DNA of 64,000 nt from an uncultured Chroococcidiopsis sp. Its GTDB lineage: Bacteria; Cyanobacteriota; Cyanobacteriia; Cyanobacteriales; Chroococcidiopsidaceae. The stretch is taken from the NCBI GenBank assembly GCA_964248365.1, contig CAXTYC010000001.1, positions 332,151-396,150 on the forward strand. The letters are read 5' to 3'. The notes beneath the pieces are model-generated. The model made no database searches and had not been told where the DNA came from. It worked only from the letters and a program-made list of their open reading frames with translations. The position numbers and the translations under genes were made by a program. Positions 39,426 to 58,317 of this stretch are shown in pieces (the first letter of the stretch is position 1; every line of letters begins with the position of its first letter).

Positions 39426-39502
39426 AACTACTACTAACGCTGCTGTGCCTGTGTAAATACCAATTTACTTTATTTTGGTTAAAGGTAACGAATTTGGCGA
39501 CA

Positions 39503-39622
39503 AAAAATTAATCCAGCCCTGTTTTAAAGATCCCTCAACGGGGGCGAAGAATACTGGTGATGAGATGAGAGATGACGGGAGGAATAATTCCCCCCGTCAC
39601 TCTCTCGGCTGGATTAATTTTT
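39503..39622. repeat. 120-bp element with perfect 16-bp terminal inverted repeats and an internal hairpin
   Basis: aaaaattaatccagcc (39503-39518) pairs with ggctggattaattttt (39607-39622); inner gacggga-ggaataattcc-cccgtc hairpin. Confidence 0.75.
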
Positions 39623-39966
39623 CCAGCTTTGCCTCCGGTCAGCAGCTAAACATCTGTCAGTTGCGATATCTTGGGAGATTCTAGCCCATGCGATCGCCTC
39701 TGTCTGAAGACGTGCTGCTTCGCGTCTACGCAATTTTAGAAGATTAATCCTTACCTGACAGGAGGAATATTCCTGCAATCGCGCCTTTGTACCTATGCCA
39801 GCCAAGAGGGTTACAATTTGAGGCACTCAAAGCAGGATTTAAGGCGTGACACTATCAAGTGCAGACAAGATGCAACGCTCATTTTCAAGCTTTTGTTCTG
39901 TAGGGGGAAGAAAAAGTTATCATTGCAGTGGGGTTACAAAGACTGCAATGAGCAAAGCGTGGGTTT

Positions 39967-40944
39967 ATGGACAAAGAAGCTGTGCGATCGCACTCATATT
40001 CGCCCAAACCATCAATACTTCCCACAACCTTTGCCGAAAGTGTTGCTCAAATCAAAATTTTTGCGTTGCAGGAATTCGATCGAGAAATCGTTGACAAGCA
40101 GCTTTATTATCACACCCGCGATCATGTGAGCAATGTTGTGCGACGCACGAAGCAGATTTTTCAGACGGTTAGTGCCGATTGGAAAGTTGCATCCGACAAG
40201 CTTTTTCGGATGGAATTACTGCTCGATCTTTGTGCCGATGCCCATGATATGGTTCAGATATTTGTTCCCCAAACTGAGGTTCACACTTCCAGAGTGCGAA
40301 CGCCTGGAGTGAGTGAAATGGCAACTATTGAGCGATTGCTGGAGTATATTAACGGGTTAAACCAGCAATTGGAAAAATACGATCCTGACAGCCCAGCGAA
40401 ATTAACTCATGAGGATATCACAATTATCCGAGATGCGATCGCAGCAACGATTTGTGCCTACGATCCCACCGAGCAAGCAATTTATCAACCTGATCTTTAT
40501 GACCAGAATAAATCATTATCACCAATCGCTCGTATTCTTGCCCTAGCCGATATTGGTGCGTTAGGAATAGACGGGGTAAAAGTTTACAACCAGGAAGGAA
40601 GCCTAATTGTTTTAGAAGAAAACCTCGATCTAATTCCACTTCTTTTAAATGGCACAATTTACACTTTAGGTTCAGACAATTCGGAGTATCACAATATCCA
40701 CAAACGCTTACTCAAACGTTGCCGCTTTCAAGTAAACTTTGCTAAAAGTCGGCTTGCTAGGTTTGAGCGTGAAGTTGCAGACTTTTCACCAAATGCAATT
40801 TCAAAGCTCAGCTTAGAAGTATTTAAGTACTTAAATACTTCAACAATTCAAGAAATTGAAGCGACAACACCAACCGATGAAAACGCAACTCTTGAAGAAC
40901 TACTTCAGTTTTTTCAGTTTGAGCGATATATCAACATACCTTAG
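39967..40944 (+). CDS. HD-domain metal-dependent phosphohydrolase, candidate cyclic-nucleotide phosphodiesterase
   Basis: YYHTRDH, AHD, SE, I.AT and LADIG in the order expected for the HD/PDEase fold. Confidence 0.7.
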   Translation: MDKEAVRSHSYSPKPSILPTTFAESVAQIKIFALQEFDREIVDKQLYYHTRDHVSNVVRRTKQIFQTVSADWKVASDKLFRMELLLDLCADAHDMVQIFVPQTEVHTSRVRTPGVSEMATIERLLEYINGLNQQLEKYDPDSPAKLTHEDITIIRDAIAATICAYDPTEQAIYQPDLYDQNKSLSPIARILALADIGALGIDGVKVYNQEGSLIVLEENLDLIPLLLNGTIYTLGSDNSEYHNIHKRLLKRCRFQVNFAKSRLARFEREVADFSPNAISKLSLEVFKYLNTSTIQEIEATTPTDENATLEELLQFFQFERYINIP

Positions 40945-40961
40945 AAGAATGAATATTTCAT

Positions 40962-43175
40962 TTACGAAGATTGCAATAAATTCTTCAGTTCTTGCTCTCG
41001 GTGATTGAGCCTTTCTGCCAATAAATTTACAATAAACCGATGAATATTGGATGCTAGCAGGGGATTGGAGGCTTCAATCTGCTCAAACGCTTCGGTTGGT
41101 AAAAAATACACAGTGCTTGGTTTGTCCGCCACGACAGATGCCATGCGTAGCGTTTTGCGGTAAAGTCCCATTTCCCCAATCGTATTGCCAACCGTGTAGG
41201 TGCGAATGCGCTTGGTTTGCCCTTCACCTAATTCTAGCACTACGCTTACTTGCCCCGAATCTACAAAATATAGTCCATCAAACGGATCGCCTTGCCGGAA
41301 CAAATGTTCTCCTTCAGCTAGTTGACGAATTTCCAGACATTTCATCAACTGATCGACTTGTTTTGGATCGGAAAAGTCTGCTTTTAGGTATTCGGAAAGC
41401 GATCGCGCTTCTTTTTGAGTTAGATTACTCTTTTGTAGAATTTGTTGTTCGCACCACTCAAGTCCCCGATCCAAGTCAGGAAAAACATGACAGAATGGAT
41501 CGTCTGCTTCTAGGCAATCACCTTGCTTCAGGCGTTGCATCGCTTCTGATGATAAATTGGTGAATAGCAAGTGAACCTGTTTTTGTCCGGCGACTTGCTT
41601 GAGTTTGGCAAAACTAAGAACGGCTGAAGCATCTAATCCACTTACCAGACGAAAATCTAGGATCACATATCGAACTTCCTGCGATGTGGGATGAGCGATG
41701 CGATCGCGGATTTGGTTAAGCAATTTATTCGCTGTTCCAAAGAAAATTAGTCCTTGCAATTCCAGAATGTAAATTTGATCTCCTTCTGCTTGCAGGATAT
41801 CTGTCTCTTCCTCAGTTCGCATTACATTGCTGTGATGATAAGCACCAGAGCTTACCCGTTTGGTAATTGTTAACCGACTGTAATTGATCACAAATAGTAC
41901 AAACGCGGCAATCAGCCCCACTCCAATTCCCTGGAGATAGCCCAATGTAGCTGTCACTAGGACAATCAGAACGATGATTGCGTAATCTGAACGCGAAAAT
42001 TTGAACCATCCCCGATAGAGCCATTCATAAAAAAATTCTATTCCTAGCAGGAGGGGAATTCCGACCAATATGAATTTAGGAATGAACGATAGCAGCGCCG
42101 CGCCACCTACTAGCATCGCTAGGCAGATTCCAGCGACTATCCCACCCACAAGGCGACGGTTTCCCCCTAAATTGCGAACGAGTGTATTCTCTCCTGTACT
42201 TGCAAATCCGCCGATACCGCCACCGATTCCCGACACGATTGTGCCAGTTCCAAACACTTTTAACTCATGATTAAGATCCAAATCGCGCCCCGCCAGTAGC
42301 TCAATTCCGTTTGCATTTAGCAACAGCGCCATAGAATCAATTAGCCACAGTGCTGCTAAACTCGGAATTTGCCTAGAAACGATCGCCCAGTCTGCCCCAC
42401 CTAGAGACTGGAATGTAGTAAAGTTATAAAGACCTCCAGGAGCAATTTTCGCCAGTAGCAAACCCTGAGACTGTGCCTGTGCAATTGGGGTTCCCGTGAT
42501 TGCCAACCCCACATAAAACAGTATGATCGCGCTGACAATAATCCCAGGAATCACCAAAAAATGATCGATGCGGTGAGGCAGCGCAAACATCGCAACGGCA
42601 AAAATCAGACCAGGAACCCACTGAAGCAATACATTCGGTTGAAACAATGACGCAATTGTGAAGTGGTGGTGATCGATTCCACTAATTGTATGGAACGCAC
42701 CTAAAATTAACAGCGCTCCCGTTCCTGCCAAAAAGCCGCCCACGACTGGATAAGGAATAAAGCGGACGAATCCACCTAGCTTAAACTGTCCTAAAGCAAG
42801 AAAAATCGTCCCAATGATTACGGTGTTGAGAATAATCGTGGCTGTAACTGTAATCAGCTTTTGCTCAAACGGAGCGTTTGCCATCTGCTCAAAGATTTGC
42901 CGAGCCACCAGACTCAGAACCGGAATGCTAGGCTCTGATACAGTCGCAACAACGGGGGCATAGGAACTCAAACAAGTGGCGAGCGCACTCACAACCGTCG
43001 CACTAAATATAATCAGCCCAATCCCCATAGGCATAGCGGGAGAGAGTCCCCCAGAAAAAATCACTGTGCCAAACGAAGCGGCGGTGATCACGATCAACAG
43101 TCCCATTGTCGCGCCTGCGAAGGAATTCAAGACGAGACGATTTGCAGCAGGTTTGGAATGCGCTATAGTAGCCAC
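40962..43175 (-). CDS. SulP/SLC26 anion transporter with STAS and cNMP-binding domains
   Basis: RFIPYPVVGGFLAG, ELQGLIFFGTA...VILDFRLVSGLDASA (STAS), LFRQGD...GEMGL...RMASV (cNMP). Confidence 0.92.
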   Translation of the reverse strand: MATIAHSKPAANRLVLNSFAGATMGLLIVITAASFGTVIFSGGLSPAMPMGIGLIIFSATVVSALATCLSSYAPVVATVSEPSIPVLSLVARQIFEQMANAPFEQKLITVTATIILNTVIIGTIFLALGQFKLGGFVRFIPYPVVGGFLAGTGALLILGAFHTISGIDHHHFTIASLFQPNVLLQWVPGLIFAVAMFALPHRIDHFLVIPGIIVSAIILFYVGLAITGTPIAQAQSQGLLLAKIAPGGLYNFTTFQSLGGADWAIVSRQIPSLAALWLIDSMALLLNANGIELLAGRDLDLNHELKVFGTGTIVSGIGGGIGGFASTGENTLVRNLGGNRRLVGGIVAGICLAMLVGGAALLSFIPKFILVGIPLLLGIEFFYEWLYRGWFKFSRSDYAIIVLIVLVTATLGYLQGIGVGLIAAFVLFVINYSRLTITKRVSSGAYHHSNVMRTEEETDILQAEGDQIYILELQGLIFFGTANKLLNQIRDRIAHPTSQEVRYVILDFRLVSGLDASAVLSFAKLKQVAGQKQVHLLFTNLSSEAMQRLKQGDCLEADDPFCHVFPDLDRGLEWCEQQILQKSNLTQKEARSLSEYLKADFSDPKQVDQLMKCLEIRQLAEGEHLFRQGDPFDGLYFVDSGQVSVVLELGEGQTKRIRTYTVGNTIGEMGLYRKTLRMASVVADKPSTVYFLPTEAFEQIEASNPLLASNIHRFIVNLLAERLNHREQELKNLLQSS

Positions 43176-43350
43176 TTTTTATCGAATTGCAGAATGTGAT
43201 AGCATTTTTGCATAACTTTTTCATAATACAAGTATTCTGAAGCGACCCGTTCACATCAAGCTGTAACATCTTCCTTAAGACATAACCTTGAAGGCTGGGA
43301 TTGAGAATTAAGTTTATTAAGATCATGCGGGTTGATGGGAACTTCTAACT

Positions 43351-44814
43351 ATGCAATTGCAATCAGCACTCGACTGGACAATCGCGCAAGCTAAACATCT
43401 TTTTCAAGCTTTATTAAACTTCTTTAATATCAGTTTGTTTACGTTTGGCGGAGAGAAATTTTCCTTTAAATCGATTACCGAATTAATTATTCAAGCGATC
43501 GCAGTAGTGCTGATTGCAGGCGCAATTAAGCAACTGCTAAAACAACGAATTCTGCCTCGCTTTGGTTTGGAGGTTGGCACACGGGAATCACTTTCGGCAA
43601 TTACAAGCTATATCGTTACGATTATCGGTTTTTTATTTGTTCTGCAAACAGCCGGAATTAACCTGAGTACTCTTGCTGTATTTGCTGGGGCGCTGGGAAT
43701 TGGATTTGGAATTGGACTGCAAAATTTAGCTAGTAATTTCATTAGTGGTCTGACTTTACTGTTTGAACAACCGATCAAAGTGGGTGATTATGTTGAAGTT
43801 GATAATTTAGCCGGAACGGTTGAACAAATCGCCATTCGTTCTACTACGATTCGCACCATTAACGGCGTGTTTGTAATTGTGCCAAACAGTCGTTTTCTCG
43901 ACAACAATGTGGTAAACTGGAGTTACCGCGATCCGAAATGTCGGATTGTGATTCCCGTTCGGGTGACAGAAGAGAGCGACTCGCTCACAGTGATGGAAGC
44001 CTTGCTGTGCGCTGCCCGTCAAGAATCTAGAGTTTTATCGTCTCCATGCCCAGAAGTATACTTCAAAGGTCCTAAAAAAGATACTTTGAGGTTTGAACTG
44101 TTGGTTTGGATTTCCAATCCCGTAGAGATGGATTCGATCAAAAGTGCATTGCAATTTCTGATTGAGGCAGAATTCCGCGATCGCGCTATTGACACCAAAA
44201 TAGCCGAGTCACTCGTGCTGGAAAATCTGCCTTCCCTGGCGGCGTTGCTTCAACCGTCAAGTGGGGGGGCGACGAATGGAACACAGAGCAATGCGATCGC
44301 ATCAGAAAAACCGATTGGCGGCTGGATGTTGCGCGATCTGCTGCGAAAAGTCAGCTATTTTCAACAATGCGGTGATATTGAACTGCGGCAAGTGATTGAG
44401 AAGGGATACCGCAAGAAGCTAGCAAGCGGTGAAATCATTTGCCGCGAAAACGATCCTGGTGATTCATTCTATATCATCCTGTCAGGTTCGGTCGAAGTGT
44501 TTGTCGAATCAATCGCCAAACAAGTTGCGATTCGCAGATCTGGAGAGTTTATTGGGGAAATGTCGCTGCTGATGGGTACTCCCCGACTGGCAACGCTTCG
44601 GACGTTAGAAGAAACTATTTTGTTTGTAGTCGATCGTGATAACCTGCAAAGCCTGCTAAAAAATCATCACGACTTAGCAGACAAAATTGCCGAAGAATTA
44701 TCCCAACGTCAGGAAGCTTTGAAAAGCTTGGGCATTACGATTGGCACAGCAACCCCAGAAGAAACGCCGTTTACCCAAATCCGCAAACGAATTGGAGCGA
44801 TTTTCGGGATTTGA
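43351..44814 (+). CDS. MscS-family channel with C-terminal cNMP-binding domain (bCNG-like)
   Basis: GIGFGIGLQNLASNFISG, PIKVGDYV, VPNS..L...V.NW; ICRENDPGDSFYIILSG...GEMSLL.GTPRLAT. Confidence 0.92.
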   Translation: MQLQSALDWTIAQAKHLFQALLNFFNISLFTFGGEKFSFKSITELIIQAIAVVLIAGAIKQLLKQRILPRFGLEVGTRESLSAITSYIVTIIGFLFVLQTAGINLSTLAVFAGALGIGFGIGLQNLASNFISGLTLLFEQPIKVGDYVEVDNLAGTVEQIAIRSTTIRTINGVFVIVPNSRFLDNNVVNWSYRDPKCRIVIPVRVTEESDSLTVMEALLCAARQESRVLSSPCPEVYFKGPKKDTLRFELLVWISNPVEMDSIKSALQFLIEAEFRDRAIDTKIAESLVLENLPSLAALLQPSSGGATNGTQSNAIASEKPIGGWMLRDLLRKVSYFQQCGDIELRQVIEKGYRKKLASGEIICRENDPGDSFYIILSGSVEVFVESIAKQVAIRRSGEFIGEMSLLMGTPRLATLRTLEETILFVVDRDNLQSLLKNHHDLADKIAEELSQRQEALKSLGITIGTATPEETPFTQIRKRIGAIFGI

Positions 44815-44839
44815 AAAGAAAGCTGTTAGCTGGCGCGCT

Positions 44840-44990
44840 GGTAATTGGTAGTCGGTAGTTGGTAGTTGGTAATTGGTAATTGGTAAAAGGGGAAAGGGTA
44901 AAAGGGTAAAGAGGTATTGCGGTAAAGGTGAAAGGTATTTTCTCCTTCAGCTCCCTCAGCCTCCTCAGCCTCCTGATCTCCCCCTACTTT
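44840..44990. repeat. STRR tandem repeats
   Basis: (ggtaatt/ggtagtt)n, (aagggta)n and (ctcagcctc)n. Confidence 0.75.
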
Positions 44991-45104
44991 CTTCTAGCCT
45001 TGGGGAGGAAGTCAAGCAGAATCGATTGGATTTACACTTTAATTGGTATGCTTTGCCAATAGTGCCAGGTAAAGTTTTAGTCTGAGGCGATGTCACGATA
45101 AGCA

Positions 45105-45587
45105 ATGCTAATGCTACTGTTTCATGCTGGAGACAACCTTTACGCCTTAGACAGTTCTCAAGTCGTCGAGGTGCTTCCAATGGTCGTGCTCAGAAAAATT
45201 CAGCACGTTCCAGATTACGTTGCTGGAGTTTTCAACTATCGCGGCAGTATTATTCCCGTCATTGACCTGTGCTATCTGATTCAAGGAACAGCTTGCCGCC
45301 CCCGTTATAGCACCCGCATTATCATAGTCAATCATACTACAAAAGACGGCAGAGAGCATCGTTTAGGGCTGATGGCAGAACGAGTAACGGAAACCTTGAG
45401 CCGACCTGATCTTGACCGAAAAAACGTTGAACGAGTGAACAATAATGTGTCCTACCTGGGAGAAATGTTTATGGATGAAAAGGGCATGATTCAACTGGTT
45501 CACTGGGAGCATTTGATCGCGGAAGTCCAACAGGCATCTTTATTAGCCGGAGGAAACATTCAGACGAATGGTGCAAGCAGCAATTGA
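45105..45587 (+). CDS. cheW: CheW scaffold (WspB-like)
   Basis: YAL...VVEVLP, VPDYVAGVFNYRGSIIPVIDL, STRIIIV, LGLMAERVT. Confidence 0.9.
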   Translation: MLMLLFHAGDNLYALDSSQVVEVLPMVVLRKIQHVPDYVAGVFNYRGSIIPVIDLCYLIQGTACRPRYSTRIIIVNHTTKDGREHRLGLMAERVTETLSRPDLDRKNVERVNNNVSYLGEMFMDEKGMIQLVHWEHLIAEVQQASLLAGGNIQTNGASSN

Positions 45588-46782
45588 GACAATGCTGAGG
45601 CAGAAAATTGGCTTAGATGCTAACAGCATCGGTTCTAGAACGATCGCCAGAGCAGTTGAGCAAAGGCGATTAGCTTGTGCCTTGCCCAATCAAACGTCTT
45701 ACCTACATCGCTTGCAGACATCAGCTCAAGAACTGCAAGAACTGATCGAAAGCGTAGTCGTTCCAGAAACTTGGTTTTTTCGAGACAAAGAACCCTTTAT
45801 ATATCTGAGTCAGTACGTCAAAACCGAGTGGCTAAAAGCAAATTCGAGCATTCTGCGCGTTCTGAGTGTACCTTGTTCAACCGGAGAAGAACCATTATCG
45901 ATCGCCATGACGCTGTTAGATTCTGGTTTGACTGCTCGCCAGTTTTGCATAGATGCGGTTGACATTAGCAAACGTGCCTTGCTCAAAGCGCAACAAGGCA
46001 TCTATAGCAAAAGATCCTTTCGCGGCGGTGACGGTTTCAAGGCTCAAGGGCGCTACTTTCAGGAAGTTGCAGGCGGGTATCAAGTCCGCCCGATCGTCCG
46101 CGAAAGGGTAAAATTTATGCATGGTAATCTTTTAAAGCCAGACTTTTTATCCCAGAGCAAATACCACATTATTTTCTGCCGCAATCTATTGATTTACCTG
46201 GATGATGCTGCTCGGAGCCAAGCGATCCAAGCATTAGATCGCGCATTAGCTCCTGGTGGTTTATTGTTTGTGGGAGCAGCAGAAACAGCGCAAATCACCG
46301 CCAAACACTTTACACGTATTCGTCATGGGTTCGCGTTTGCTTTTTGCAAAGAAAATCGCGCCTCTGTGCCAGATGTTAAGCCAAAGGCGATCGCCCAGGC
46401 GGTTAAAGTCAACGCCCCCGAAACTCTTGCGCCCCCGAACCCTCAAATTGCTCAACCTGTTCGTACCCAATCATCGTCCAAACTTGAAATTGCTAAACAA
46501 TTAGCCGATCGCGGACAATTGGCAGAGGCAGCCACGAATTGCGAATCTTATTTAAGTGTAAACCGCACCGATGCCCCAGCATATATTTTGTTGGGCGAAA
46601 TCTATCAAGCACTCAACCAACTTGAAAGAGCAGAACAGTCCTTTCAAAGAGCGATTTATCTCAACCCCCATTCTATTGAAGCCTTAATTCATCTAGCACT
46701 GTTGAAAGAACAACGAGGCGATCGCGCTCGATCAGAAATCTTAAGGCAGCGCGTTCAACGGCTGCTCAAAATTCAGAAATAA
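45568..46782 (+). CDS. cheR: CheR methyltransferase with C-terminal TPR (WspC-like)
   Basis: VVPETWFFRD, RVLSVPCSTGEEP, IIFCRNLLIY; TPR AYILLG...FQRAIYLNP. Confidence 0.93.
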   Translation: MVQAAIETMLRQKIGLDANSIGSRTIARAVEQRRLACALPNQTSYLHRLQTSAQELQELIESVVVPETWFFRDKEPFIYLSQYVKTEWLKANSSILRVLSVPCSTGEEPLSIAMTLLDSGLTARQFCIDAVDISKRALLKAQQGIYSKRSFRGGDGFKAQGRYFQEVAGGYQVRPIVRERVKFMHGNLLKPDFLSQSKYHIIFCRNLLIYLDDAARSQAIQALDRALAPGGLLFVGAAETAQITAKHFTRIRHGFAFAFCKENRASVPDVKPKAIAQAVKVNAPETLAPPNPQIAQPVRTQSSSKLEIAKQLADRGQLAEAATNCESYLSVNRTDAPAYILLGEIYQALNQLERAEQSFQRAIYLNPHSIEALIHLALLKEQRGDRARSEILRQRVQRLLKIQK

Positions 46783-46806
46783 GCGTTTTAACAACGGTTC
46801 TTTGCG

Positions 46807-48402
46807 ATGTGGAATCGAATCACAAATCGGATTTTACTTGGCTACTCAATCCCCCTTTTGTTTCTGCTGGCATTGAGTGCAATAGTTTACTCTTCTACCG
46901 CGAATGCATTCAAATTGCAACAAGAGGCGGATCGAACCGAAGGAATCATTAGGAATACCGATGCAATGGTAGATGGAGTCAATCGGATGATTGGCGGCAC
47001 ACGCGGCTACCTAATTTTCCCCAACAATCAGTCTTACCTGGATGCTTATAACGAAGGGCGCGAAGTGTTTGTGGAAAAAAGTAAAAGTCTGGCAGCCATT
47101 TCTGATCCTCAAACACGAGAACTTGTGAATGATCTGTATCAATTGGCTGAAAATTACGATCAAATTTCGCGGAACGTTATACAGTTGGTTAATCAGAACA
47201 ACCTAGACCAAGCGAGGGTGGAAGCGAGCAAACCTCGCATCCGAGAAGTGATCGATCGCCGCGATCGGCTCGTCACCGCTCTACAAACTCAACTGAATCA
47301 AACTTCTCAAGCTGTGAGAAACTCTCAGCAGTTTTTGCTGGGGCTAATTATCTTCGGCACAGCACTAACGATTCTGGCAACGATCCTGGCTGGGTTGTGG
47401 ACTACGTTGCCCCTCAAACGGCAACTTCCCAAAGTCGTGAATGCGGCAACTGCGATCGCAGATGGAGATCTCACTCACGAAATTAGAGTTACAAGAGATA
47501 GAACTGAAGTAGGGCAATTGCTCAGAGCGTTTCAAAACATGACCAAAAATTTGAATTCTTTGATCGCTCAAGCGCAAAAGTCGGGAATTCAAATCAGTAC
47601 GTCAACGACTCAAATTGCCGCCGCCGGTAGACAGCTAGAAGCAACCGTAAATCAGCAAGCTGCCTCTATGCACGAAGTGAATGCAACCTCTCGCCAAATT
47701 GCGCTAACGGCTGGCGACTTGGTGAAGGCGATGGACGATGTAGCTCGAACGGCTCTGGCGACAACTGAAGCAGCATCAAAAAGCCAAAACAATTTAGAAA
47801 AAATTCAAGCGGCAATGCAAAATTTAGTGCTGGCAACAAACTCAATTTGCTCAAAACTGAAAATAATGGATGAAAAAGCGAACAATATCAACAACGTTGT
47901 CACTACGATTACCAAAGTAGCCGATCAAACAAATTTATTGTCTCTCAATGCGGCGATCGAAGCCGAAAAAGCAGGCGAGTACGGTGCAGGATTTGCCGTA
48001 GTAGCACGAGAAATTCGCCGTCTGGCAGATCAATCGGCGGTTGCTACCTTAGAAATTGAACAAATGGTCAAACAGATGCAATCTAGTGTATCGACAGGCG
48101 TGATGGAGGTGGATAAATTCAGCTCTGAAGTTGCACAATATGTCGAAGATGTCGGCACGATCAGTGTCCAAATCGCTGGTTTCATCCAAAATGTGCAGTC
48201 TTTGGCTCCCCAGTTTGGAGTTGTTAGCCAGAGTATGGATGAGCAATATCGTGGGGCGGAACAAATTAGTATAGCGATCGCCCAACTAAGTGAGGCTTCT
48301 GCTCAGACAGTACAATCTTTGCAGGAAACGAATAACGCGCTCTCGCAGCTTGATGATGCCGCCCAAGGCTTACAGCGAGAAATTTCCCAATTTAAGGTAT
48401 AA
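46807..48402 (+). CDS. Methyl-accepting chemotaxis protein 1 (TM-sensor-TM-HAMP-MA; WspA-like)
   Basis: Two TM segments, CHASE3-like RGYL..YL..Y, hairpin tip [34 protein letters not shown]; ends SQFKV. Confidence 0.93.
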
Positions 48403-48462
48403 ATGGAAACAATTACGCCTCATCAGGTAAATGATTGCTCAAATCACATCAGTGTAGAGAGC
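48403..48462 (+). pseudogene. Remnant of the 5' end of the WspD-like cheW
   Basis: atggaaacaa...catcaggtaaatgattgct.aatca.atc.g.gtagag matches 50340-50398; translation METITPHQVNDCSNHISVE vs METSKQHQVNDCWNQIGVE. Confidence 0.85.
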
Positions 48463-48650
48463 AGGGGGAGCAGGAGGGACAGGGGGGCTTTTGGGGAGAT
48501 GGACAAGATGAAGAATTAACTATTCTGTCTTGTGCCTTGTGTCTTCTGTCTTCTGACTCCTGACTCCTTTCCCCTTTACCGCAATACCTCTTTTCTTTTA
48601 ACTGGTAACTGGTAACTGGTAACTAGTAACTGATTTCCCTTCCTCCTTCC
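48462..48650. repeat. STRR tandem repeat tract
   Basis: (tgtcttc)n, (ctcctga)n and (ctggtaa)n. Confidence 0.75.
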
Positions 48651-48716
48651 CCAATAGGATAGATCTATACTTTGATAGATCCTCTCTACTTTAGAAATGG
48701 GTCATGGTGAGCTGGT

Positions 48717-50339
48717 TTGCATATGTTGAATCGCTGGAAAATTAGCACCCAAATTGCTGCGGGGTTTACCCTGGGCTTAGCGGTCTTTACAATAATCGGT
48801 ATTATTTCATACCGAGGTACAGAGCAGCTCATTTCAACCGCTCGTCAAGAGAAGCACACCTATCAGGTGTTGGGTGAGTTAGAAGAAATTCTTTCGTTGA
48901 TGAAAGATGCGGAAACGGGGCAACGAGGATATCTGCTGACAAGTGATAATCGCTATCTCGATCCATACAATCAAGCGCGAACTGCGATTGGGGCAAGAAT
49001 TGGCACACTCAGGGGTTTAGTCCAAGACAATCCGAATCAACAAAGCTATCTTCAAACCCTAGAACCTTTAGTCACTCAAAAACTAGCTGAACTCGATACT
49101 ACAATTCGTCTCAAACAAACTGAGGGAACAAACGCCGCGCTAAAAGTCGTCCAAACCGATCAAGGTAAGCGTTTGATGGATCAAATCCGAGATATAGTGT
49201 CCCGTATGAAAGCGGTCGAGCGGGATTTATTGCAAAGGCGATCCCAAGACGCTGAAGTTTCTGCTCGTCACACCTTGGATAGCGTGATCTACGGGATGCT
49301 GTTTGGTATTTTGCTCCTTACTCTCATCGGCATAGTTCTAAATCGTCAGATTACACAGTCGCTTAATCGCGTCTCAAAAATTGCTGCTCAGATCGCGGCT
49401 GGGGATTTAACTCAAGAAATTGAAGTTACAAAAGATACCACTGAAGTAGGGCAACTGCTGGCAGCGTTTCAAAACATGACTAAAAGTTTGAATTCTTTGA
49501 TTACTCAAGCGCAAAAGTCGGGAATTCAAATTAGTTCGTCAACGACTCACATTGCCGCCGCCGGCAGAGAGCTAGAAGCAACGGTAAATCAGCAAGCTGC
49601 TTCGATGCACGAAGTCAAAGCAACCACTCGGCAAATAGCGGCAACGGCTGGCAACTTGGCGAAAGGAATGGACGATGTAGCTCGAACGGCTCTGGCGACA
49701 ACCGCAGCAGCATCGAACAGCCAAAACAATTTAGAAAAAATTCAAGCAGCAATGCAAAATTTAGTGCTGGCAACAAACTCAATTTCCACAAAATTGAGAA
49801 TTATGGATGAAAAAGCGAACAATATCAACAACGTTGTCACCACGATTACCAAAGTAGCCGATCAAACAAATTTATTGTCTCTCAATGCGGCGATCGAAGC
49901 CGAAAAAGCAGGCGAGTACGGTGCAGGATTTGCCGTAGTAGCACGAGAAATTCGCCGTCTGGCAGATCAATCGGCGGTTGCTACCTTAGAAATTGAACAA
50001 ATGGTCAAACAGATGCAATCTAGTGTATCGACAGGCGTGATGGAGGTGGATAAATTCAGCTCTGAAGTTGCACAATATGTCGAAGATGTCGGCACGATCA
50101 GTGTCCAAATCGCTGGTTTCATCCAAAATGTGCAGTCTTTGGCTCCCCAGTTTGGAGTTGTTAGCCAGAGTATGGATGAGCAATATCGTGGGGCGGAACA
50201 AATTAGTATAGCGATCGCCCAACTAAGTGAGGCTTCTGCTCAGACAGTACAATCTTTGCAGGAAACGAATAACGCGCTCTCGCAGCTTGATGATGCCGCC
50301 CAAGGCTTACAGCGAGAAATTTCCCAATTTAAGGTATAA
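48717..50339 (+). CDS. Methyl-accepting chemotaxis protein 2 with CHASE3 sensor (WspA-like)
   Basis: HTYQVL...[12 protein letters not shown]...YLDPY, DNPNQQ and [14 protein letters not shown]3 motifs; MA domain nearly identical to MCP1. Confidence 0.93.
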
Positions 50340-51056
50340 ATGGAAACAAGCAAGCAGCATCAGGTAAATGATTGCTGGAATCAGATCGGAGTAGAGGGCG
50401 ATCGCTCTTGTGTCGAGCTAGAAAAGCTAATTCACTGCCGCAACTGTCCCGTCTATTCGACGGCGGGACGCAGTTTACTAGAACGGGAACCACCTGGCGA
50501 CTACTTAAACGAATGGACGGCTGTTTTAGCTGCTCCTGTTGCCCAACCTTCCACGCATTTAACCCCGCAAGTTGGCTTCAAAATCGGACGGGCAGAAGAC
50601 ACCTTTGGAGCGATCATTTTTCGCTTGATTGATGAGCGCTTCGCCTTACCCGTGCGAGTGCTGCAAGAAGTCACCCGTCCATCTGCTATTCATACACTGC
50701 CCCACCGCAGCAATGACTTGTTGTTGGGGTTAGTCAACATTCGCGGTGAAATTCTACTTTGTGCTTCTTTGAGTCATCTTCTGGGGCTGGAAACTCCAAC
50801 AAACTCACCGTCTAGCCACATATACCAGAATCGAATGCTTGTGGTTGGACACAAAGACAGCAAATGGGTGTTTTCGGTCGATGAAGTGTATCGAATTCAC
50901 CGCTTTCATCTGGACGAGTTAAAAGCTGCGCCTGTTGTCGTTGCCCTCGCAAATGAAACGTATACCCAAGGGGTAATTGACTGGCACAACAAAAAGGTGA
51001 ATTATCTAAATCCAGAGCTTTTGTTTGATGCCCTCGATCGTAAGATTCTTTGGTGA
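50340..51056 (+). CDS. cheW: CheW scaffold with Cys-rich N-terminus (WspD-like)
   Basis: DCWNQIGV.GDRSC..L...HCRNCPVY, then HTLPHR...LLGLVNIRGEI. Confidence 0.92.
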   Translation: METSKQHQVNDCWNQIGVEGDRSCVELEKLIHCRNCPVYSTAGRSLLEREPPGDYLNEWTAVLAAPVAQPSTHLTPQVGFKIGRAEDTFGAIIFRLIDERFALPVRVLQEVTRPSAIHTLPHRSNDLLLGLVNIRGEILLCASLSHLLGLETPTNSPSSHIYQNRMLVVGHKDSKWVFSVDEVYRIHRFHLDELKAAPVVVALANETYTQGVIDWHNKKVNYLNPELLFDALDRKILW

Positions 51057-51070
51057 GGAGGGGAGAAAGT

Positions 51071-53905
51071 ATGCGCGATTACTCCATGCTGGATCTGTTT
51101 CGTCAAGAAGTGGAAACTCAGGTGACAAACCTGAAGCAAAGCTTATCGATTCTCAAACAACAGCCGTCGTTGAACAGCGAATTAGAAAGCGCGACGCGAG
51201 CGCTCCATGCGATCGCAGGATCTGCCCAAATCGTCGAAATCGATGCCGCAGCAAAGCTAGCGTTGGCGATGAGTGCAAGCTTAATTGCCGCTTCCGAACA
51301 CTCAATCGAGTTGACACAAGCGCAAATCGATCAATTGCTATACGCACTCGATCTCCTCTTGGGAATTAGCCACGCCAGCAAAGGTGATTTAGAACACTAC
51401 CTGGTAGAACACGCCCAGAATTTGTCAAGTACCCAAACCGCGATTAGCCAGCCCATAGCCGAAGGCATAGCCCAGCCTTCGTCCCACGACATTCCGGTGA
51501 CACCTGCCGCAACAACAGAGGCTTCTAGCGATGCAACTCCAACGCCCCCAGATCCCCCAACACCGTCAAAGCGACTAATCGACGACACTTCTATGCTAGA
51601 ATTGTTTCGTTTAGAAGTCGAGGAACAGGCGACGATATTAACCAACGGTTTACTCGCGCTAGAAACTCAACCACAATCTCCTCAACAATTAGAAGCGCTG
51701 ATGCGAGCCGCTCATTCCGTTAAAGGAGCCGCCCGAATTGTTGGATTAGATGCGGCAGTTGGGCTAGCACACGTCATGGAAGATTGCTTTGTTGCGGCAC
51801 AAAACCAAATAATTACCTTGGACGCAGATCAAATCGATGTGTTGTTGCGTGGAGTCGATATACTTCAGAGCCTTAGCCAAATGAGTGATAGCGATTTAGC
51901 CGACACTTTAGCACACAACGCTTCAGAAATTGAATCGATTCGACAGGCGATCGCTGCTATGCAAACAGGGGGAGCCATACCCAAGCCACAGCAGGTTAAT
52001 CCTTTTCGCCCCTTTATACCAGAAAAACTCAATTCTGACAACAAAAATCCTTCTACACCCGTTGTTCAACCCGAATCGGTCAGTCTTGCCCCCCGTCCAC
52101 CTGTATTAATGGAAGCATCAAATGATGTGCAGCTCGAACAAAGCGCTGCTTCCCAACCTAGCGTAGCTACCTCAGATCGAGTCGTGCGAGTCAGTGCAGA
52201 AAACCTGAATCGCATGATGGGACTTGCTGGAGAATCGCTGATAGAAGCGAACTGGCTGCCGCCGTTTGCCGATTCTCTCATGCTGCTAAAATCCCGTCAG
52301 AACGAGCTTTCTAACACTCTAGAACAGTTACAACAGAATAACCTGTTAAACACTGCCCCCAGTCAGGATAGCAAAGCGCTGCTAGAGTCCGCCCGACGCA
52401 AAGAGCAAGAATGCCGCGATTTACTGGGTGAACGCTTGACCGAACTAGAAGGATTTATCCGTCGCACCGCCAACCTAAGCGATCGCTTGTATCGAGAAGT
52501 AATTACTTCCCATATGCGCCCGTTCGAGGATGGTGTACAAGGCTTTCCACGCATGGTGCGAGATATTGCCCGTCAGCTCAATAAGCAAGTCAAGCTGGAC
52601 ATTTTAGGCAAATCAACCGCAGTTGACCGCGATATTCTCAAGAAACTCGAAGCTCCCCTTACCCATATTCTGCGAAATGCCGTCGATCACGGTTTGGAAC
52701 TGCCAGAAGACCGCATCAAGGCTGGCAAACCCGAAACGGGAACTATTCGCCTAGAAGCGTTTCATCGTGGCGGTATGTTAGCAATTACGATCGCAGACGA
52801 TGGCAAAGGCATCGATCCACAGATGCTGCGTCAGCGAGTGATCGATCAGAACCTAGCAGCGCCCGAAGTAGCCGCAAAAATGACCGATGCCGAACTAATG
52901 GAGTTCTTGTTTTTACCTGGATTTTCGATGGCAAAGCAGGTAACAGAACTCTCTGGTCGGGGGGTTGGGTTAGACATTGCTAAGAGTATGGCGCAGGAAG
53001 TAGGGGGGACTGTCAGGGCAACCTCTGTCCCCCAACGCGGCACTAGTTTTTATTTCCAATTGCCCCTGACACTCTCGGTAGTTCGGACTTTGCTAGTTGA
53101 GATTTCTGGGGAAGCTTACGCTTTTCCTTTAGCACGAATAGATAGAATTGTCAATATATTCGGTTCAGAAATTGCCTTTGTGCAGAATCGTCAGTACTTG
53201 ACGCTGGATGATAAAAACATCGGACTAATTTGGGCGCATCAGGTTCTCGACTTGCCGCCGCCGCTCTCCAGTTCCTCTAGGCTTTGGGTTGTGATCCTAA
53301 GTGATTCATCCAACACCTACGGGCTTGTGGTTGATAGCTGCTTGGGAGAACGAGAGCTAGTCGTGCGTCCCCTCGATCCTCGCTTGGGCAAAGTACAAAA
53401 TATCAGTGCGGCTGCATTGATGGGCGATGGTTCGCTCGTTTTGATTGTGGATGTGTCCGACTTGGTGCGATCGCTCGACAACTTGCTCAAGACAGGACAG
53501 TTAGCCCTTGTCGGCGAAGCGGCTCACAGGCGCGATCATAAACAAGTGCTTGTCGTCGATGATTCGATTACGGTGCGGGAAATGGAACGCAAGCTGCTAC
53601 AAAACCGAGGCTATAGCGTGGATGTAGCCGTAGATGGAATGGAAGGCTGGAATGCGATTCGCTCTCATCCTTATGACTTGGTAATTAGCGATATTGATAT
53701 GCCTCGGATGAATGGAATTGAACTGCTAAAGCAAATTAAAAGCCATCCGCGCCACAAATCAATTCCCGTAATTGTGGTGTCTTACCGCGATCGTGAAGAA
53801 GACCGCATTCAAGGCTTGGAAGCTGGCGCTGATTATTATCTAACCAAAAGTAGCTTTCATGACGACACCTTGATCGAGGCTGTCGTGGATTTGATTGGTG
53901 AGTAA
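51071..53905 (+). CDS. cheA: Hybrid CheA kinase (Hpt-Hpt-dimerisation-HATPase-CheW-REC; WspE-like)
   Basis: Hpt RALHAIAG and [29 protein letters not shown]...SGRGVGLD, C-terminal VDDS...[10 protein letters not shown]. Confidence 0.93.
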
Positions 53906-53909
53906 TGTT

Positions 53910-54944
53910 ATGAAGATCGCAATTGTCAATGACATGGTAATCGCCGTCGAAGCCATTCGACGGGTTTTGTTGACTATTCCCGATTACCAAATTGCTTGGA
54001 TTGCGAAGAATGGTGCAGAAGCAGTGGCAAAATGCGCCCAAGATACCCCAGATTTAATCTTGATGGATTTAATTATGCCCGTCATGGATGGGGTGGAGGC
54101 AACACGTCTGATTATGGAACAGTCTCCTTGTGCGATTGTGATTGTCACAGCCAATGTCGGACAAAATACCGCCAAGGTGTTTGAAGCAATGGGTTATGGT
54201 GCGCTAGATGCGGTCAACACGCCGATATTAGGTAGCCAGGGAAAACCAGAAGCAGCAATGCAATTGCTGGGAAAAATTGCCACAATCCGCAAGCTAATCG
54301 GCAAATCCAGTCAAACCCCAAACTCCAAACTCCAAACTCTAAGTTCCAAACGCCACAGCCTAAATGCTACCTCACTTCCTCCCCTCGTCGCAATCGGTTC
54401 GTCTACGGGCGGACCTAAAGCCCTGTCTACTATTCTGTCTCGCTTACCCGCAAACTTTGACGCGGCGATCGCAGTCGTTCAACACGTTGATGCACAGTTC
54501 GCCCTCGGCATGATCGACTGGCTAAACGACCTCACGCCCCTAACCGTGAAGAAAGCATCCGTCGGCGATCGCCCAGAAAAAGGAACTGTCTTGGTCGCTT
54601 GCACAAACGATCACTTGTGGATGCAACCCAACCAAATGCTTAATTACACTAAAGATCCGATCGACTATCCCTACCGCCCTTCGATTGATGTGTTTTTCAA
54701 AAGTATTGCTCAGTACTGGACACCGAAAGGAATTGCTATTCTACTTACAGGTATGGGGCGAGACGGTGCAGAAGGACTTAAACTGCTCCGCACTCACGGC
54801 TGGCATACGATCGCCCAAGATAAAGAAAGCTGCGTCGTCTACGGAATGCCCAGAGCCGCCATTGAGCTAAATGCAGCCGTTGAGGTTCTCAATCCAGAGG
54901 CGATCGCCACTCGGCTGATTGGGCGTTTAGCCGTCAACCACTAG
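53910..54944 (+). CDS. cheB: CheB methylesterase (WspF-like)
   Basis: REC domain LMDLIMP; catalytic [12 protein letters not shown] and LTGMGRDGA. Confidence 0.95.
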
Positions 54945-54963
54945 CTTTCAACTCGATCTCCCA

Positions 54964-56454
54964 ATGGACGACCTGATTACTGTTCTTTTGATCGACGATC
55001 AAACCATCATCGGTGAAGCCGTGCGGCGGATGCTAGCTGCTGAACAAGACATCGTGTTTCACTATTGTAGCAACCCGACTCAAGCCCTCAAGGTTGCCAG
55101 AGAGTGTCGCCCGACAGTCATTTTGCAAGATCTGGTGATGCCGCAGATGGATGGGTTGCTATTGGTGCAATTTCTGCGATCGCGCGATGCTCCAACTTAT
55201 CAGATTCCGCTTATTGTGCTGTCGAGCAAAGAGGAACCACTGATTAAAGCACAAGCATTTGAACTGGGCGCGAATGACTACCTAGTGAAGTTGCCCGATC
55301 GCGTCGAATTGATTGCCCGTATCCGCTATCACTCTCGCGCTTATATGAACCTGCTCAAGCGCCAGGAAGCAGAAGAAAGGCTGCGTGACGAAAACTTGCG
55401 ACAAGCATTGTACATCGAGCAGGTGGGCAAATTGACCTCCGCTGCCGTTGCTGTCGAACAAGATACCTTCCAAACTGAAAGCCTAAACGATGTAGTTGAG
55501 CGCGGCGACGAGTTAGGACAACTGGCACGGGTTTTTACTCAAATGGTCAAAACGGTCAAAAACCGCGAAACCGAATTGAAGCGGTTAAATAATTCCTTTG
55601 CCCGATTTTTTCCGGCTGAATATCTGCAATTTCTCCGTAAAGACAGCGTTACCGAAGTGCAACTAGGCGATTACGTCAGCAAAACGATGGCAGTCATGTT
55701 TAGCGATATTCGCTCGTTCACTACGCTTTCAGAAACCATGACTCCTCAAGAAAACTTTAACTTTGTTAATGCCTATCTCAAACGAGTTAGCCCAGAAATT
55801 CGCAATCACTATGGAATTATTGTCAAATTCCTGGGAGATGGTATGATGGCGGTGTTTCCCGACGGTGCTGATGATGCCGTCAAAGCAGGCATTGCCAAAC
55901 AGAATCGGGTGCATGAATACAACCAGGAGCGCTCGGCTAGAGGCGGCTTGCCCATTCAGGTCGGTATTGGCGTTCATGTCGGACACATGATGCTAGGAAT
56001 GGTGGGAGACGAGAATCGCATTCAAGGAGATGCTTTTTCTGATAACGTCAATCTGACCGCACGGTTAGAAGGCTTGACTAAGTATTATGGGGTGTCGATG
56101 CTGATTTCTGGTCAAACGCTAGAGCATCTAAGCCATCCCGATCGCTATCAAATTCGCTTTTTAGATCGGGCGATCGTCAAAGGGCGAAACGAAGCGATCG
56201 CAGTCTACGAAGTACTCGATGCTGAAAGCGAAGAAGTCCGTCACCTCAAAGTGCAAACCCAACCTGATTTTGAACAAGGGATAAGTTGTTACCGCAATTG
56301 CTCGCTTAATGATGCAAAAGCCTGTTTTGAGCAAGTATTAGCCGTTAACCCTTCCGATCAGACTGCACAACTTTACCTAGAGCGAGTCGAAGGGTTGCTA
56401 GAGCATGGTATACCCGAAACCTGGAATGAGGCTTGGGCGTTCAGCGAGAAATGA
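54964..56454 (+). CDS. cya: WspR-like receiver + HAMP-like linker + class III adenylate cyclase
   Basis: REC LLIDDQTIIGEAVRR...FHYC.NP..A......PTVILQDLVMP; RGDELGQLARVF.QM; cyclase FSDIRSFT, VKFLGDG, DAFSDNVNLTARLE. Confidence 0.9.
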   Translation: MDDLITVLLIDDQTIIGEAVRRMLAAEQDIVFHYCSNPTQALKVARECRPTVILQDLVMPQMDGLLLVQFLRSRDAPTYQIPLIVLSSKEEPLIKAQAFELGANDYLVKLPDRVELIARIRYHSRAYMNLLKRQEAEERLRDENLRQALYIEQVGKLTSAAVAVEQDTFQTESLNDVVERGDELGQLARVFTQMVKTVKNRETELKRLNNSFARFFPAEYLQFLRKDSVTEVQLGDYVSKTMAVMFSDIRSFTTLSETMTPQENFNFVNAYLKRVSPEIRNHYGIIVKFLGDGMMAVFPDGADDAVKAGIAKQNRVHEYNQERSARGGLPIQVGIGVHVGHMMLGMVGDENRIQGDAFSDNVNLTARLEGLTKYYGVSMLISGQTLEHLSHPDRYQIRFLDRAIVKGRNEAIAVYEVLDAESEEVRHLKVQTQPDFEQGISCYRNCSLNDAKACFEQVLAVNPSDQTAQLYLERVEGLLEHGIPETWNEAWAFSEK

Positions 56455-56646
56455 TTTTGATGCCAATTCAATTGACCTCTTGCACTCGTCCTAATTGAGT
56501 TCTCGAATCTGATTCTTTTGGTCAGGTATATGAACATTATTTCGCTACTAGGTGAACTATACAGCGAAATGCTTGCAGCTTAAAACTTGCTTTCCTGTTT
56601 TCCTCCCTGGGCTAAAAGTCGCTTTCTTTTCCAACGAGGTTTTTCT

Positions 56647-58317
56647 ATGAGCAATAATTATTTACGCCTGACGAGTAGCATAAGCATTTTATGTGTAATT
56701 GCCCCAGCTACGACCGCGTTTGCGCAAACGTCTTTTGCTCCAGAAACTTCGGTATCGCAGCTTTCTGACGTACAACCGAGTGATTGGGAATTTCTTGCTC
56801 TCCAATCACTGATTGAGCGCTATGGCGTAAATGTTGCAGCTGACACTCCTGTGAAAAGTAGAAATTCGCAATTGGATCGAAATTGTCCTGCTTCTCCCCC
56901 TTGTCTTCCTTATCCTTTTTTGCAAGCAGAGGGAACAATAAAACTCTCGGTAGGGGGGAGAGAAGATAAACAAGAGTTTTTTGATTATCTGGGCAATCAA
57001 ACTATAACTCGTTACGAATTTGCCACTCTTCTAAATACAGTGGTGAGGCGAGTAAATAAGTTAATCAGTATTAAACCGACAGAACAAGTATCCCGCGATG
57101 ACTTGGCAACCTTGCAAAGATTACAGCAAGATTATACTGCCGAACTAACAACTTTACGAGGTCGGCTAGATACTCTCGAAGCCCGCGCCGCCCAACTAGA
57201 AGCAAATCAATTTTCTACTACTACTAAACTTAGTGGTCAAACAATCTTTGCTGTTAATGGGGGTGGTTTTAGTGGCAGTCACATTCTCGATCCCACAGGT
57301 AGAGAAATCGCCAATAATGAACCCAATCCCACTATACTCTATCGAGCTGCTTTAGATTTCAACACCAGCTTTTCTGGCACAGACTTGCTAAAAGTTCGCT
57401 TGGATACAGGTAGTAACGGTAGTTTTGATAATGCTGCCTCAGTTCTGGAACCCTTTTTCGGCAGTGTTTTGGACTATTCTATCAAACCGCCGCGAAATGG
57501 TGAGTTTGGCATTAGTCGCCTATATTATACTTTTAACCCGTTTAAAGATGTTCAGGTATCCCTTGGTCCTGCGCTCGTGCCTACAGATTTCGTTGACTTA
57601 AATAGTTACGCCAATCTGAGCTTTTTAGACTTCTCTACTCTTGCACTGGTCAACAACTATATTCTGTTTCCTATTAATGGTCTAAGCTCAGGTGCAGTGA
57701 TTAACTGGAAACCTAGCAACGGTTCTTTCACACTACGGGCTATGTATGTAGCTGCGGATGCGGCAAATCCTAGTAATCAAGGGCAGGTTGAAGGTGTGTC
57801 GCCTTTTTCTACATTATTGTATCCTAGCGGGGGTGGGAGTCTTGGTATATTTGGCGATTCTTACCAGGAAATAGTTGAATTGGAATACTCGCCAAAGCAA
57901 ACCTTTGCTCTACGTCTACAATACAGTGGCGGCAATGTGTTCGATCACCGTTTTGATGTATTTGGGGCTAATGCCCAATTAGCCTTGTCACGACGGCTAG
58001 CAATCTTCGGTCGTTACGGCATTGGCAGCTACAATGATACAAATTTCGGAGACATTAAACCCAACTATTGGATGGCTGGGGTGACATTACGCAACTTGTT
58101 TGTGCCTGGTGCTGTGGCTGGTATTGCTGCTGGTCAACCTTTTATTGAAAGTGCAGTGGGAAATGCTACACAGACAAACTTTGAAGCGTTTTATAACTTT
58201 CCCCTGAGTGAAAATATTGGCATCACGCCGTTGGTACAGGTGATCGCTAATCCTAGTAATCAGCAGGACAATAGCACAATTGTGACGGGTACTTTGCGTA
58301 CAGTCTTTTCATTTTAA
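56647..58317 (+). CDS. Cyanobacterial SLH-OprB-type porin
   Basis: Signal peptide, SVSQLSDVQP.DW..ALQSLIERYG, TRYEFA, LEANQFSTTTKL, C-terminal GTLRTVFSF. Confidence 0.92.
   Translation: MSNNYLRLTSSISILCVIAPATTAFAQTSFAPETSVSQLSDVQPSDWEFLALQSLIERYGVNVAADTPVKSRNSQLDRNCPASPPCLPYPFLQAEGTIKLSVGGREDKQEFFDYLGNQTITRYEFATLLNTVVRRVNKLISIKPTEQVSRDDLATLQRLQQDYTAELTTLRGRLDTLEARAAQLEANQFSTTTKLSGQTIFAVNGGGFSGSHILDPTGREIANNEPNPTILYRAALDFNTSFSGTDLLKVRLDTGSNGSFDNAASVLEPFFGSVLDYSIKPPRNGEFGISRLYYTFNPFKDVQVSLGPALVPTDFVDLNSYANLSFLDFSTLALVNNYILFPINGLSSGAVINWKPSNGSFTLRAMYVAADAANPSNQGQVEGVSPFSTLLYPSGGGSLGIFGDSYQEIVELEYSPKQTFALRLQYSGGNVFDHRFDVFGANAQLALSRRLAIFGRYGIGSYNDTNFGDIKPNYWMAGVTLRNLFVPGAVAGIAAGQPFIESAVGNATQTNFEAFYNFPLSENIGITPLVQVIANPSNQQDNSTIVTGTLRTVFSF

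Follow-up and report, generated by a model that had tools for sequence, protein, structure and literature searches.

The open reading frame at 54964..56454 of the window (the window being the whole stretch of 64,000 nucleotides of Chroococcidiopsis sp. DNA analysed here) is the last gene of a Wsp/ACF operon, and its product is probably a phosphorylation-driven receiver-HAMP-cyclase that makes cAMP. Genes next to the operon are likely to supply targets and an eraser of this messenger, and the cyclase gene itself probably originated in a fusion of a cyanobacterial receiver-PP2C (REC-PP2C) gene with a HAMP-cyclase-TPR module. The outline of such a locus is known already; what appears to be new, judged from sequence comparison, is the PP2C-derived origin and the surrounding candidate cAMP circuit. 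The gene and the parts of its product are as follows.

54964..56454, plus strand: REC-linker-HAMP-class III cyclase-TPR-like tail, 496 aa, terminal response regulator (by Pfam and residues)
54982..55326, plus strand: WspR-type receiver, residues 7-121
55129-55131, plus strand: predicted phospho-acceptor D56
55336..55401, plus strand: post-receiver helix, residues 125-146, with the motif EAE..L..ENLR
55408..55578, plus strand: cytoplasmic HAMP-like segment, residues 149-205
55681..56199, plus strand: class III cyclase domain, residues 240-412, with D248, K288, D292, D356, N363, R367 and K406
56269..56451, plus strand: TPR-like C-terminal tail

A first-pass annotation had described the protein as a WspR receiver on a Wsp chassis in which GGDEF was replaced by an intact adenylate cyclase, and all of the sequence motifs it quoted are present. 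Pfam places Response_reg at residues 7-121 (E 3.7e-20) and Guanylate_cyc at 240-412 (E 5.4e-19), finds no GGDEF domain in the protein, and gives HAMP at 156-197 (19.3 bits, cut-off 25) and TPR_2 at 436-465 below their cut-offs; the TPR-like tail, absent from the first-pass annotation, is typical of this cyanobacterial cyclase subfamily. There is no transmembrane segment in the protein (maximum 19-residue hydropathy 1.37). The best PDB matches of the receiver, at E about 1e-48, bear out the WspR designation: they are 3bre (E 1.9e-48) and 3i5a (E 6.4e-48), solved REC-GGDEF proteins aligned without large gaps, of which we take 3i5a to be WspR, and PleD is the next receiver in the PDB at only 1.5e-15. 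The identifier 3BRE occurs in the available text of the WspR structure paper (PMC2270323). Within the genome the next-best receiver scores only 1e-15, so that the likeness to WspR is specific. The HAMP-like segment is weak but recurrent, PF00672 being matched by all nine aligned segments of relatives (best E 5e-6), with scores of 19.3 and 24.7 bits against the curated cut-off of 25 and a HAMP label on some homologues; a search of the PDB with the segment gave no match.

The cyclase looks catalytically intact by its residues. D248, D292, N363, R367 and K406 align to the two metal Asp, the transition-state Asn and Arg and the phosphate Lys of CyaB and OaPAC, and these five, together with K288 and D356, are invariant in 120/120 of the best 120 of 7948 homologues. 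In the same set the receiver residues D11, D12, D56, S87 and K109 are unchanged wherever aligned (D11/D12 in 117 and D56 in 119 of the 120, the remainder being gaps); the named homologues are cyanobacterial. Lys plus Asp or Thr select ATP in class III cyclases. K288 corresponds to Lys in the adenylate-cyclase chimera 6fht, in CyaB and in OaPAC, and to Glu in Cya2 (2w01), which is presumably a guanylate cyclase, while D356 corresponds to Thr in 6fht, CyaB and OaPAC. The ATP-type pair proposed in the first-pass annotation is thus in place, and cAMP is the likely output. The D356 position is, we assume, Thr in the bicarbonate-sensitive enzymes, and a response to bicarbonate is therefore not expected. 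Two-residue specificity rules for these cyclases have exceptions, and specificity is read here from just such a pair, which leaves a very slim chance that the enzyme makes cGMP, is constitutive or is inactive; what speaks against this is that none of K288, D356, the catalytic residues and the receiver residues varies among the best 120 homologues, and that other Wsp-linked cyclases have Glu at the K288 position, a sign that the site varies where specificity likely differs. In the close relatives P0009, P0079 and L042:13933-15783 (617 aa) a PAS stretch is inserted between HAMP and cyclase; P0129 shares the receiver and HAMP, has two PAS domains and lacks a cyclase.

The genome is 99.97% complete and has two PF00211 genes. 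The second of these lacks equivalents of D248, N363 and R367, and since it misses three catalytic residues, 54964-56454 encodes the only intact class III cyclase found in the genome. That second gene (G000:C1:82961-83971, L123) has a small GTPase-like gene on one side and a kinase gene on the other, and weak PF00211 matches of similar size occur in 4/5 same-genus genomes.

The chassis on which the cyclase sits was correctly recognized as Wsp, and the genes that precede it are the following, all identified with Pfam.

45105..45587, plus strand: wspB-like CheW
45568..46782, plus strand: wspC-like CheR-TPR
46807..48402, plus strand: first wspA-like receptor, CHASE3-HAMP-MCP
48717..50339, plus strand: second wspA-like receptor, CHASE3-HAMP-MCP (start codon 48717 or 48723)
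50340..51056, plus strand: wspD-like CheW
51050..53905, plus strand: wspE-like CheA-REC hybrid kinase with two Hpt stretches
53895..54944, plus strand: wspF-like CheB, ending 19 bp before the cyclase gene

With the cyclase gene at the end of this complete wspB-C-A-A-D-E-F series, the eight genes form an operon in which the intergenic gaps run from -20 to 24 bp, with one exception of 314 bp. The Wsp/ACF gene set (MCP, two CheW, CheR-TPR, CheA-REC, CheB and a multi-domain regulator) is complete in the one cluster, and a WspE tree with Wsp-like loci is consistent with the assignment. The two receptor genes have near-identical signalling regions (window 47454-50339, 1937-bp spacing), indicating duplication or gene conversion. 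Intergenic tandem repeats of a TGGTAAY-type heptamer lie at window 44839-44885 and 48603-48621, and an intergenic 28-bp inverted pair at 44908/48566; both are likely to be common cyanobacterial repeats. Scans for promoters (25 vs 25.1) and terminators (19 vs 20.7) were at chance level. Contigs of related strains cover the block in four runs; the single RNA run is flat, possibly DNA, and was not counted as expression. Elsewhere in the window, two similar oxidoreductase frames (17465-19156 and 24997-26697), named by motifs, lie on either side of a group of sugar-nucleotide genes in a low-GC stretch.

A cluster of this layout was found in silico in Phormidesmis priestleyi BC1401 by Chrismas et al. 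2016 (PMC4971617), where the accessible text gives a cyclic-nucleotide-binding gene followed by wspB, C, A, D, E and F, with a class 3 adenylate cyclase standing where WspR would be; the layout is for that reason already in print. A P. priestleyi protein (P0042) is 80% identical to the one studied here over the full length. In what is available of that account, a WspR is sought elsewhere, the cyclase is not analysed for receiver, residues or origin, and no PDE-like gene, SulP-cNMP gene or island is mentioned. The Wsp systems of Pseudomonas, as described in the portions consulted of PMC2270323 and PMC8552884, share CheR-TPR, two CheW, CheA-REC and CheB, and likewise end in a regulator whose receiver is closely similar. 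They differ in output (GGDEF, where the present protein has HAMP-cyclase-TPR) and gene order, B-C-A-A-D-E-F with two CHASE3 receptors being the arrangement here, and both the receiver and WspE of the present system fall in cyanobacterial clades apart from the GGDEF systems. In Burkholderia WspH a Wsp core likewise works with a WspR-like receiver on a different output, but there, according to the same part of PMC8552884, the output is a histidine kinase. That text also describes Wsp as exclusive to beta- and gammaproteobacteria, with only WspR or WspH as output; the cyanobacterial clusters found in the present study therefore contradict this exclusivity for Wsp-like clusters, as far as the portion of the source goes. 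Multi-domain regulators with varied outputs are a feature of the ACF systems with CheR-TPR surveyed in PMC3447774, whose text and Table S2, in the part available, list one REC-mononucleotidyl cyclase, from the delta proteobacterium NaphS2, and no cyanobacterial one. The Desulfobacterota Wsp-linked cyclases found here are of another subfamily than that of 54964-56454. Further such regulators may reportedly be listed in the 2010 survey of Wuichet and Zhulin. A literature search, mostly outside subscription papers, returned no experimental study of a Wsp-linked cyclase.

The origin of the receiver-cyclase differs from that first proposed, a replacement of GGDEF amounting to a direct swap of c-di-GMP for cAMP. 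In a survey of 401 genomes of the phylum, with ten candidates scored per genome, WspR-type receivers occurred in 31 genomes (32 matches), and their outputs were histidine kinase in 11 cases, PP2C in seven, HAMP-cyclase-TPR in eight, a different cyclase in six and GGDEF in none; the eight include the present protein, and of the 31 other regulators 28 were scanned with Pfam and three assigned by BLAST. All seven other HAMP-cyclase-TPR proteins of the sample adjoin wspF, six of them within a larger Wsp operon. Among the best 150 representatives across all proteins, 41 of which were scanned with Pfam, kinases are the commonest, GGDEF accounts for 14 (12 by motif, two by Pfam), and PP2C, HD-GYP, TIR and other cyclases are also found. 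The WspR-type receiver is a module that has moved among many outputs, which include kinase, PP2C, GGDEF, HD-GYP, TIR and several cyclases. The TIR case is P0198, in which that domain is fused to a WspR-type receiver.

Trees of the receivers place the HAMP-cyclase-TPR type inside the cyanobacterial REC-PP2C group, with support of 98/93 for its union with four PP2C receivers. Two trees were made, a quick one of 118 receivers and a careful one of 46 chosen rows and 121 columns that left out the linker, near-duplicates and most unnamed representatives. The receiver phylogeny suggested in the first-pass annotation gave a divided answer: the present receiver lies within the WspR-type clade (SH-aLRT 99 against six outgroup receivers in the quick tree), but it is not sister to the GGDEF WspR proteins. 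AU tests, their groups named after the quick tree had been viewed, reject union with eight non-cyanobacterial (proteobacterial) GGDEF WspR (p 0.005), with a REC-GGDEF from Pseudanabaena (p 0.001) and with the second cyanobacterial cyclase type (p 0.0006). The linker tells the same way. A motif of EAE plus ENxR/EIxR, a pattern chosen only after the sequences had been viewed, is present in 26/26 HAMP-cyclase-TPR proteins and 10/10 cyanobacterial PP2C proteins, and its ENxR/EIxR part in 0/15 GGDEF, 0/19 other-cyclase and 0/25 locus kinase proteins. The post-receiver helix (residues 125-146) is accordingly best seen, on these sequences, as a likely fusion scar. A direct exchange, in which a WspR gave up its GGDEF for the cyclase, is highly improbable. 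The receiver is strongly like WspR, and the one GGDEF protein with such a receiver from Pseudanabaena means that GGDEF could be a deep cyanobacterial state; yet GGDEF is missing from all 32 sampled cyanobacterial regulators, both GGDEF unions are rejected, and the linker resembles that of the PP2C proteins and not that of the GGDEF ones, so that the idea is largely refuted as an immediate step. What stands of the proposed swap is a second-messenger difference from Pseudomonas Wsp, the receiver having come, it seems, from the cyanobacterial REC-PP2C lineage.

The direction of change is a separate matter. In a quick WspE tree of 49 rows, PP2C and cyclase loci are mixed in one clade (98), apart from the GGDEF systems (99), and the PP2C loci lie inside the cyclase loci; whole regulator genes have therefore been exchanged, and the chassis does not fix the direction from PP2C to cyclase. 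The receiver-cyclase might then be the older form, with REC-PP2C derived from it, or swaps might have been repeated, and in this WspE tree a Moorena cyclase locus is indeed basal to the PP2C loci and other cyclase loci surround them. This course is nevertheless improbable, for the PP2C receivers are paraphyletic to the cyclase receivers in the receiver tree, and ENLR also precedes non-Wsp PP2C domains (L132, L135, L146), which marks the motif as native to PP2C.

For the other partner in the fusion the HAMP segment gives a lead, being 51-58% identical to those of coiled-coil-HAMP proteins and 21-30% to Cache-linked HAMPs. The coiled-coil-HAMP proteins sit in clusters of PP2C, slr1658-family (SiaB-like) and slr1659-family genes, and in one genus a stand-alone coiled-coil-HAMP-cyclase-TPR gene lies between PP2C and slr1658 genes. 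The simplest reading of these sequences is that a REC(-PP2C) was fused with a coiled-coil-HAMP-cyclase-TPR-like module. A named donor gene was dropped: the cyclase-domain tree did not decide between coiled-coil-HAMP, Cache-HAMP and kinase-receiver cyclases as the source, and the reading was limited to the HAMP link.

Several other Wsp-type arrangements came to light. Downstream of cyanobacterial Wsp regulators with PP2C output (L013, L018, L045, L088, L017, L019-L021, L023) stand slr1658- and slr1659-family genes, which make up a SiaABC-like partner switch, and in L021 the gene after these is a SiaD-like GGDEF. An independent cyanobacterial fusion joins the WspR-type receiver to a different cyclase subfamily with Lys/Asp residues and no HAMP (L025-L028, L030, L031, L054-L056, L108, L111, L113, L119); no cNMP or PDE-like neighbours were seen within 4 kb of these loci. 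A third Wsp-linked type, from Nostoc favosum, Desulfobacterota and relatives (L062:14088-15581, L095:10162-11703, L097, L098, L100, L103; P0153, P0170, P0255), carries Glu where the present protein has K288, as does Cya2, and some Wsp systems may thus have cGMP as output. Several of these third-type cyclases are followed by a second WspR-type regulator, with PP2C where typed.

Upstream of the operon lie genes that may belong to the same circuit.

39441..56650, no strand: block of about 17 kb, between HEAT-repeat gene and oprB, ends approximate, absent at the syntenic site of G405
39967..40944, plus strand: 325-aa HD-superfamily protein, candidate cAMP eraser, its model resembling class I cyclic-nucleotide phosphodiesterases
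40962..43175, minus strand: SulP-STAS-cNMP-binding anion transporter, candidate cAMP target
43351..44814, plus strand: MscS channel with C-terminal cNMP-binding domain, bCNG-type architecture, candidate cAMP target

In the same-genus genome G405, oprB directly follows the HEAT-repeat gene and the block has no counterpart; MscS-cNMP, SulP-cNMP, the HD gene and the Wsp operon are absent there together, as one unit. WspE was not found in any of the five same-genus genomes searched for it, and the regulator was found in 0/6 same-genus and 1/18 same-family genomes. No terminal repeats or mobility genes mark the block, and either gain or loss could account for its presence here and absence at the G405 site; the GC3 of the Wsp genes (0.42-0.50 vs a genome median of 0.39) is a weak hint of gain. 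The MscS-cNMP protein has a GE..R motif and resembles the bCNG channels, described in the available part of the review PMC13591265 as MscS-like with a C-terminal cNMP-binding domain and mostly cyanobacterial; membership is by architecture only, and the physiological role of these channels is, in that text, not understood.

Neither Pfam nor NCBIfam gives a match for the HD protein, and its likeness to class I phosphodiesterases comes from an alignment-based model (pLDDT 93.7; 38 for a single-sequence model). In VIA, class I PDEs take up the whole of the top 17 rows (Z 13.4-15.4, rmsd 4.1-6.7 A, 219-246 residues covered at 11-17% identity), and generic HD hydrolases rank below them at Z 10.8 or less. 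Foldseek gave nothing below E 0.001 for the model, with PDEs listed only at E above 0.1, and a single meaningless match was all that came of searching the PDB with a profile made from the HD alignment. Pfam HD is matched by 10/96 members of the family and PROSITE PS00126 by 0/96, and PDEase_I is absent from the 25 Pfam families listed, out of 57, for the 96 members. H49, H53, H93, D94, E117, D195, Q255 and F258 are invariant in all 96, so that, as in class I PDEs, HxxxH, HD, E, D and QxxF stand in the expected order. By motif spacing the first six fill 6/8 positions of the class I metal pocket (residue list from the accessible text of PMC5617230), with Gln97 and Thr120 in place of two His of this eight-residue pocket; Q255 and F258 would, by their order, correspond to the purine-scanning Gln and clamp Phe. 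The two His replacements and the missing PROSITE match set the protein apart from class I PDEs as presented in the parts consulted of PMC5617230 and PMC8115329, the latter describing the class as eukaryotic. Going by the model, the protein likely works like a class I PDE, and it was not filed as a member. No experimental study of a bacterial class I-fold PDE was found in the literature searched, mostly outside subscription papers.

Linkage of such genes to the cyclase recurs. A cNMP-binding or PDE-like gene lies within 4 kb at 11/25 HAMP-cyclase-TPR loci vs 0/64 loci with other outputs, counts that overstate the case as some genomes entered twice and kin are not independent. The flanks ranged from 0 to 16 kb, and one other-cyclase locus has such a gene at 6.4 kb. 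Linked genes occur upstream, downstream and inverted, and the other 14/25 loci have no such neighbour within the fetched flanks. The PDE-like gene is present in 7/401 genomes: 4/8 with HAMP-cyclase-TPR, 0/23 with other WspR-type regulators and 3/370 without any, and in one of these three it adjoins another cyclase. Metagenomic loci of the PDE-like gene, many of them short contigs and one resembling a palindromic artefact, have a Wsp (12), cNMP-type (14) or cyclase (6) neighbour in 23/43 cases, three with a non-Wsp cyclase. Since 14/25 loci are without such a neighbour and the PDE-like gene is missing in 4/8 genomes, the cAMP circuit is not obligatory. At L154:9112-11152 (G086), two tandem PDE-like copies lie 7-9 kb downstream of a Wsp cyclase, beyond a double-cNMP gene and a transporter-like cluster.

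It is conceivable that the enzyme is a true adenylate cyclase but its neighbours form no dedicated circuit, the cAMP going to global receptors (CRP-like and others) and the HD protein hydrolysing something else. The genome has 17 PF00027 matches, 14 of them above the cut-off, more than half of the related loci lack the neighbours, and the HD protein has no Foldseek match under E 0.001, fails PS00126 in 96/96 members and superposes in VIA at an rmsd of 4-7 A. We regard this as unlikely, given that the linkage is specific to the HAMP-cyclase-TPR type (11/25 vs 0/64), that the four gene types are jointly present or absent at the G405 site, and that the 17 best matches of the fold are class I PDEs without exception, the other HD hydrolases following at a distance.

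Under the preferred reading, that of a Wsp-driven cyclase with its targets and eraser alongside, the two CHASE3 receptors would set the activity of WspE, with WspC and WspF providing adaptation, as the complete gene set suggests. WspE would phosphorylate D56, to judge from the type of receiver and its operon position, and the change in the receiver would reach a homodimeric cyclase by way of the linker helix and HAMP, with an effect that may be of either sign. WspR is regulated partly without phosphorylation, as reported in the portion seen of PMC2270323, and phosphorylation of D56 may accordingly have a strong or a weak effect on the cyclase. The cyclase, with its ATP-type residues, is predicted to convert ATP to cAMP, which, from linkage and fold, would have the MscS-cNMP channel and the SulP-cNMP transporter next door as its targets and the PDE-like protein as its eraser. 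The regulator would have been assembled from the N-terminal part of a cyanobacterial REC-PP2C and a HAMP-cyclase-TPR module such as those of slr1658/slr1659 partner-switch clusters. A bolder version, in which the block is a portable and complete cAMP circuit of receptor array, phospho-gated cyclase, class I-fold PDEs and two cAMP-gated transporters, and the fusion short-circuited a relay from Wsp through PP2C and partner switch to cyclase, is tentative and, in our view, somewhat doubtful.

Pseudomonas Wsp drives c-di-GMP and biofilm formation, and a cAMP version has been listed from genomes. The locus described here suits testing, as it carries the sole intact class III cyclase found in its genome with candidate targets and a candidate eraser alongside. 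The evolutionary picture is also corrected, with a receiver that seems to be PP2C-derived in place of a GGDEF replacement, and in cyanobacteria the WspR-type receiver emerges as a plug-in, joined now to kinases, now to phosphatases and now to cyclases of at least two unrelated kinds. If cAMP proves to be a substrate of the HD protein, a bacterial family would have the fold of class I, which the available text of PMC8115329 calls eukaryotic. Should the portable circuit prove true, it would provide the first upstream signal for bCNG channels and SulP-cNMP transporters, and a eukaryote-type cAMP eraser for bacteria.
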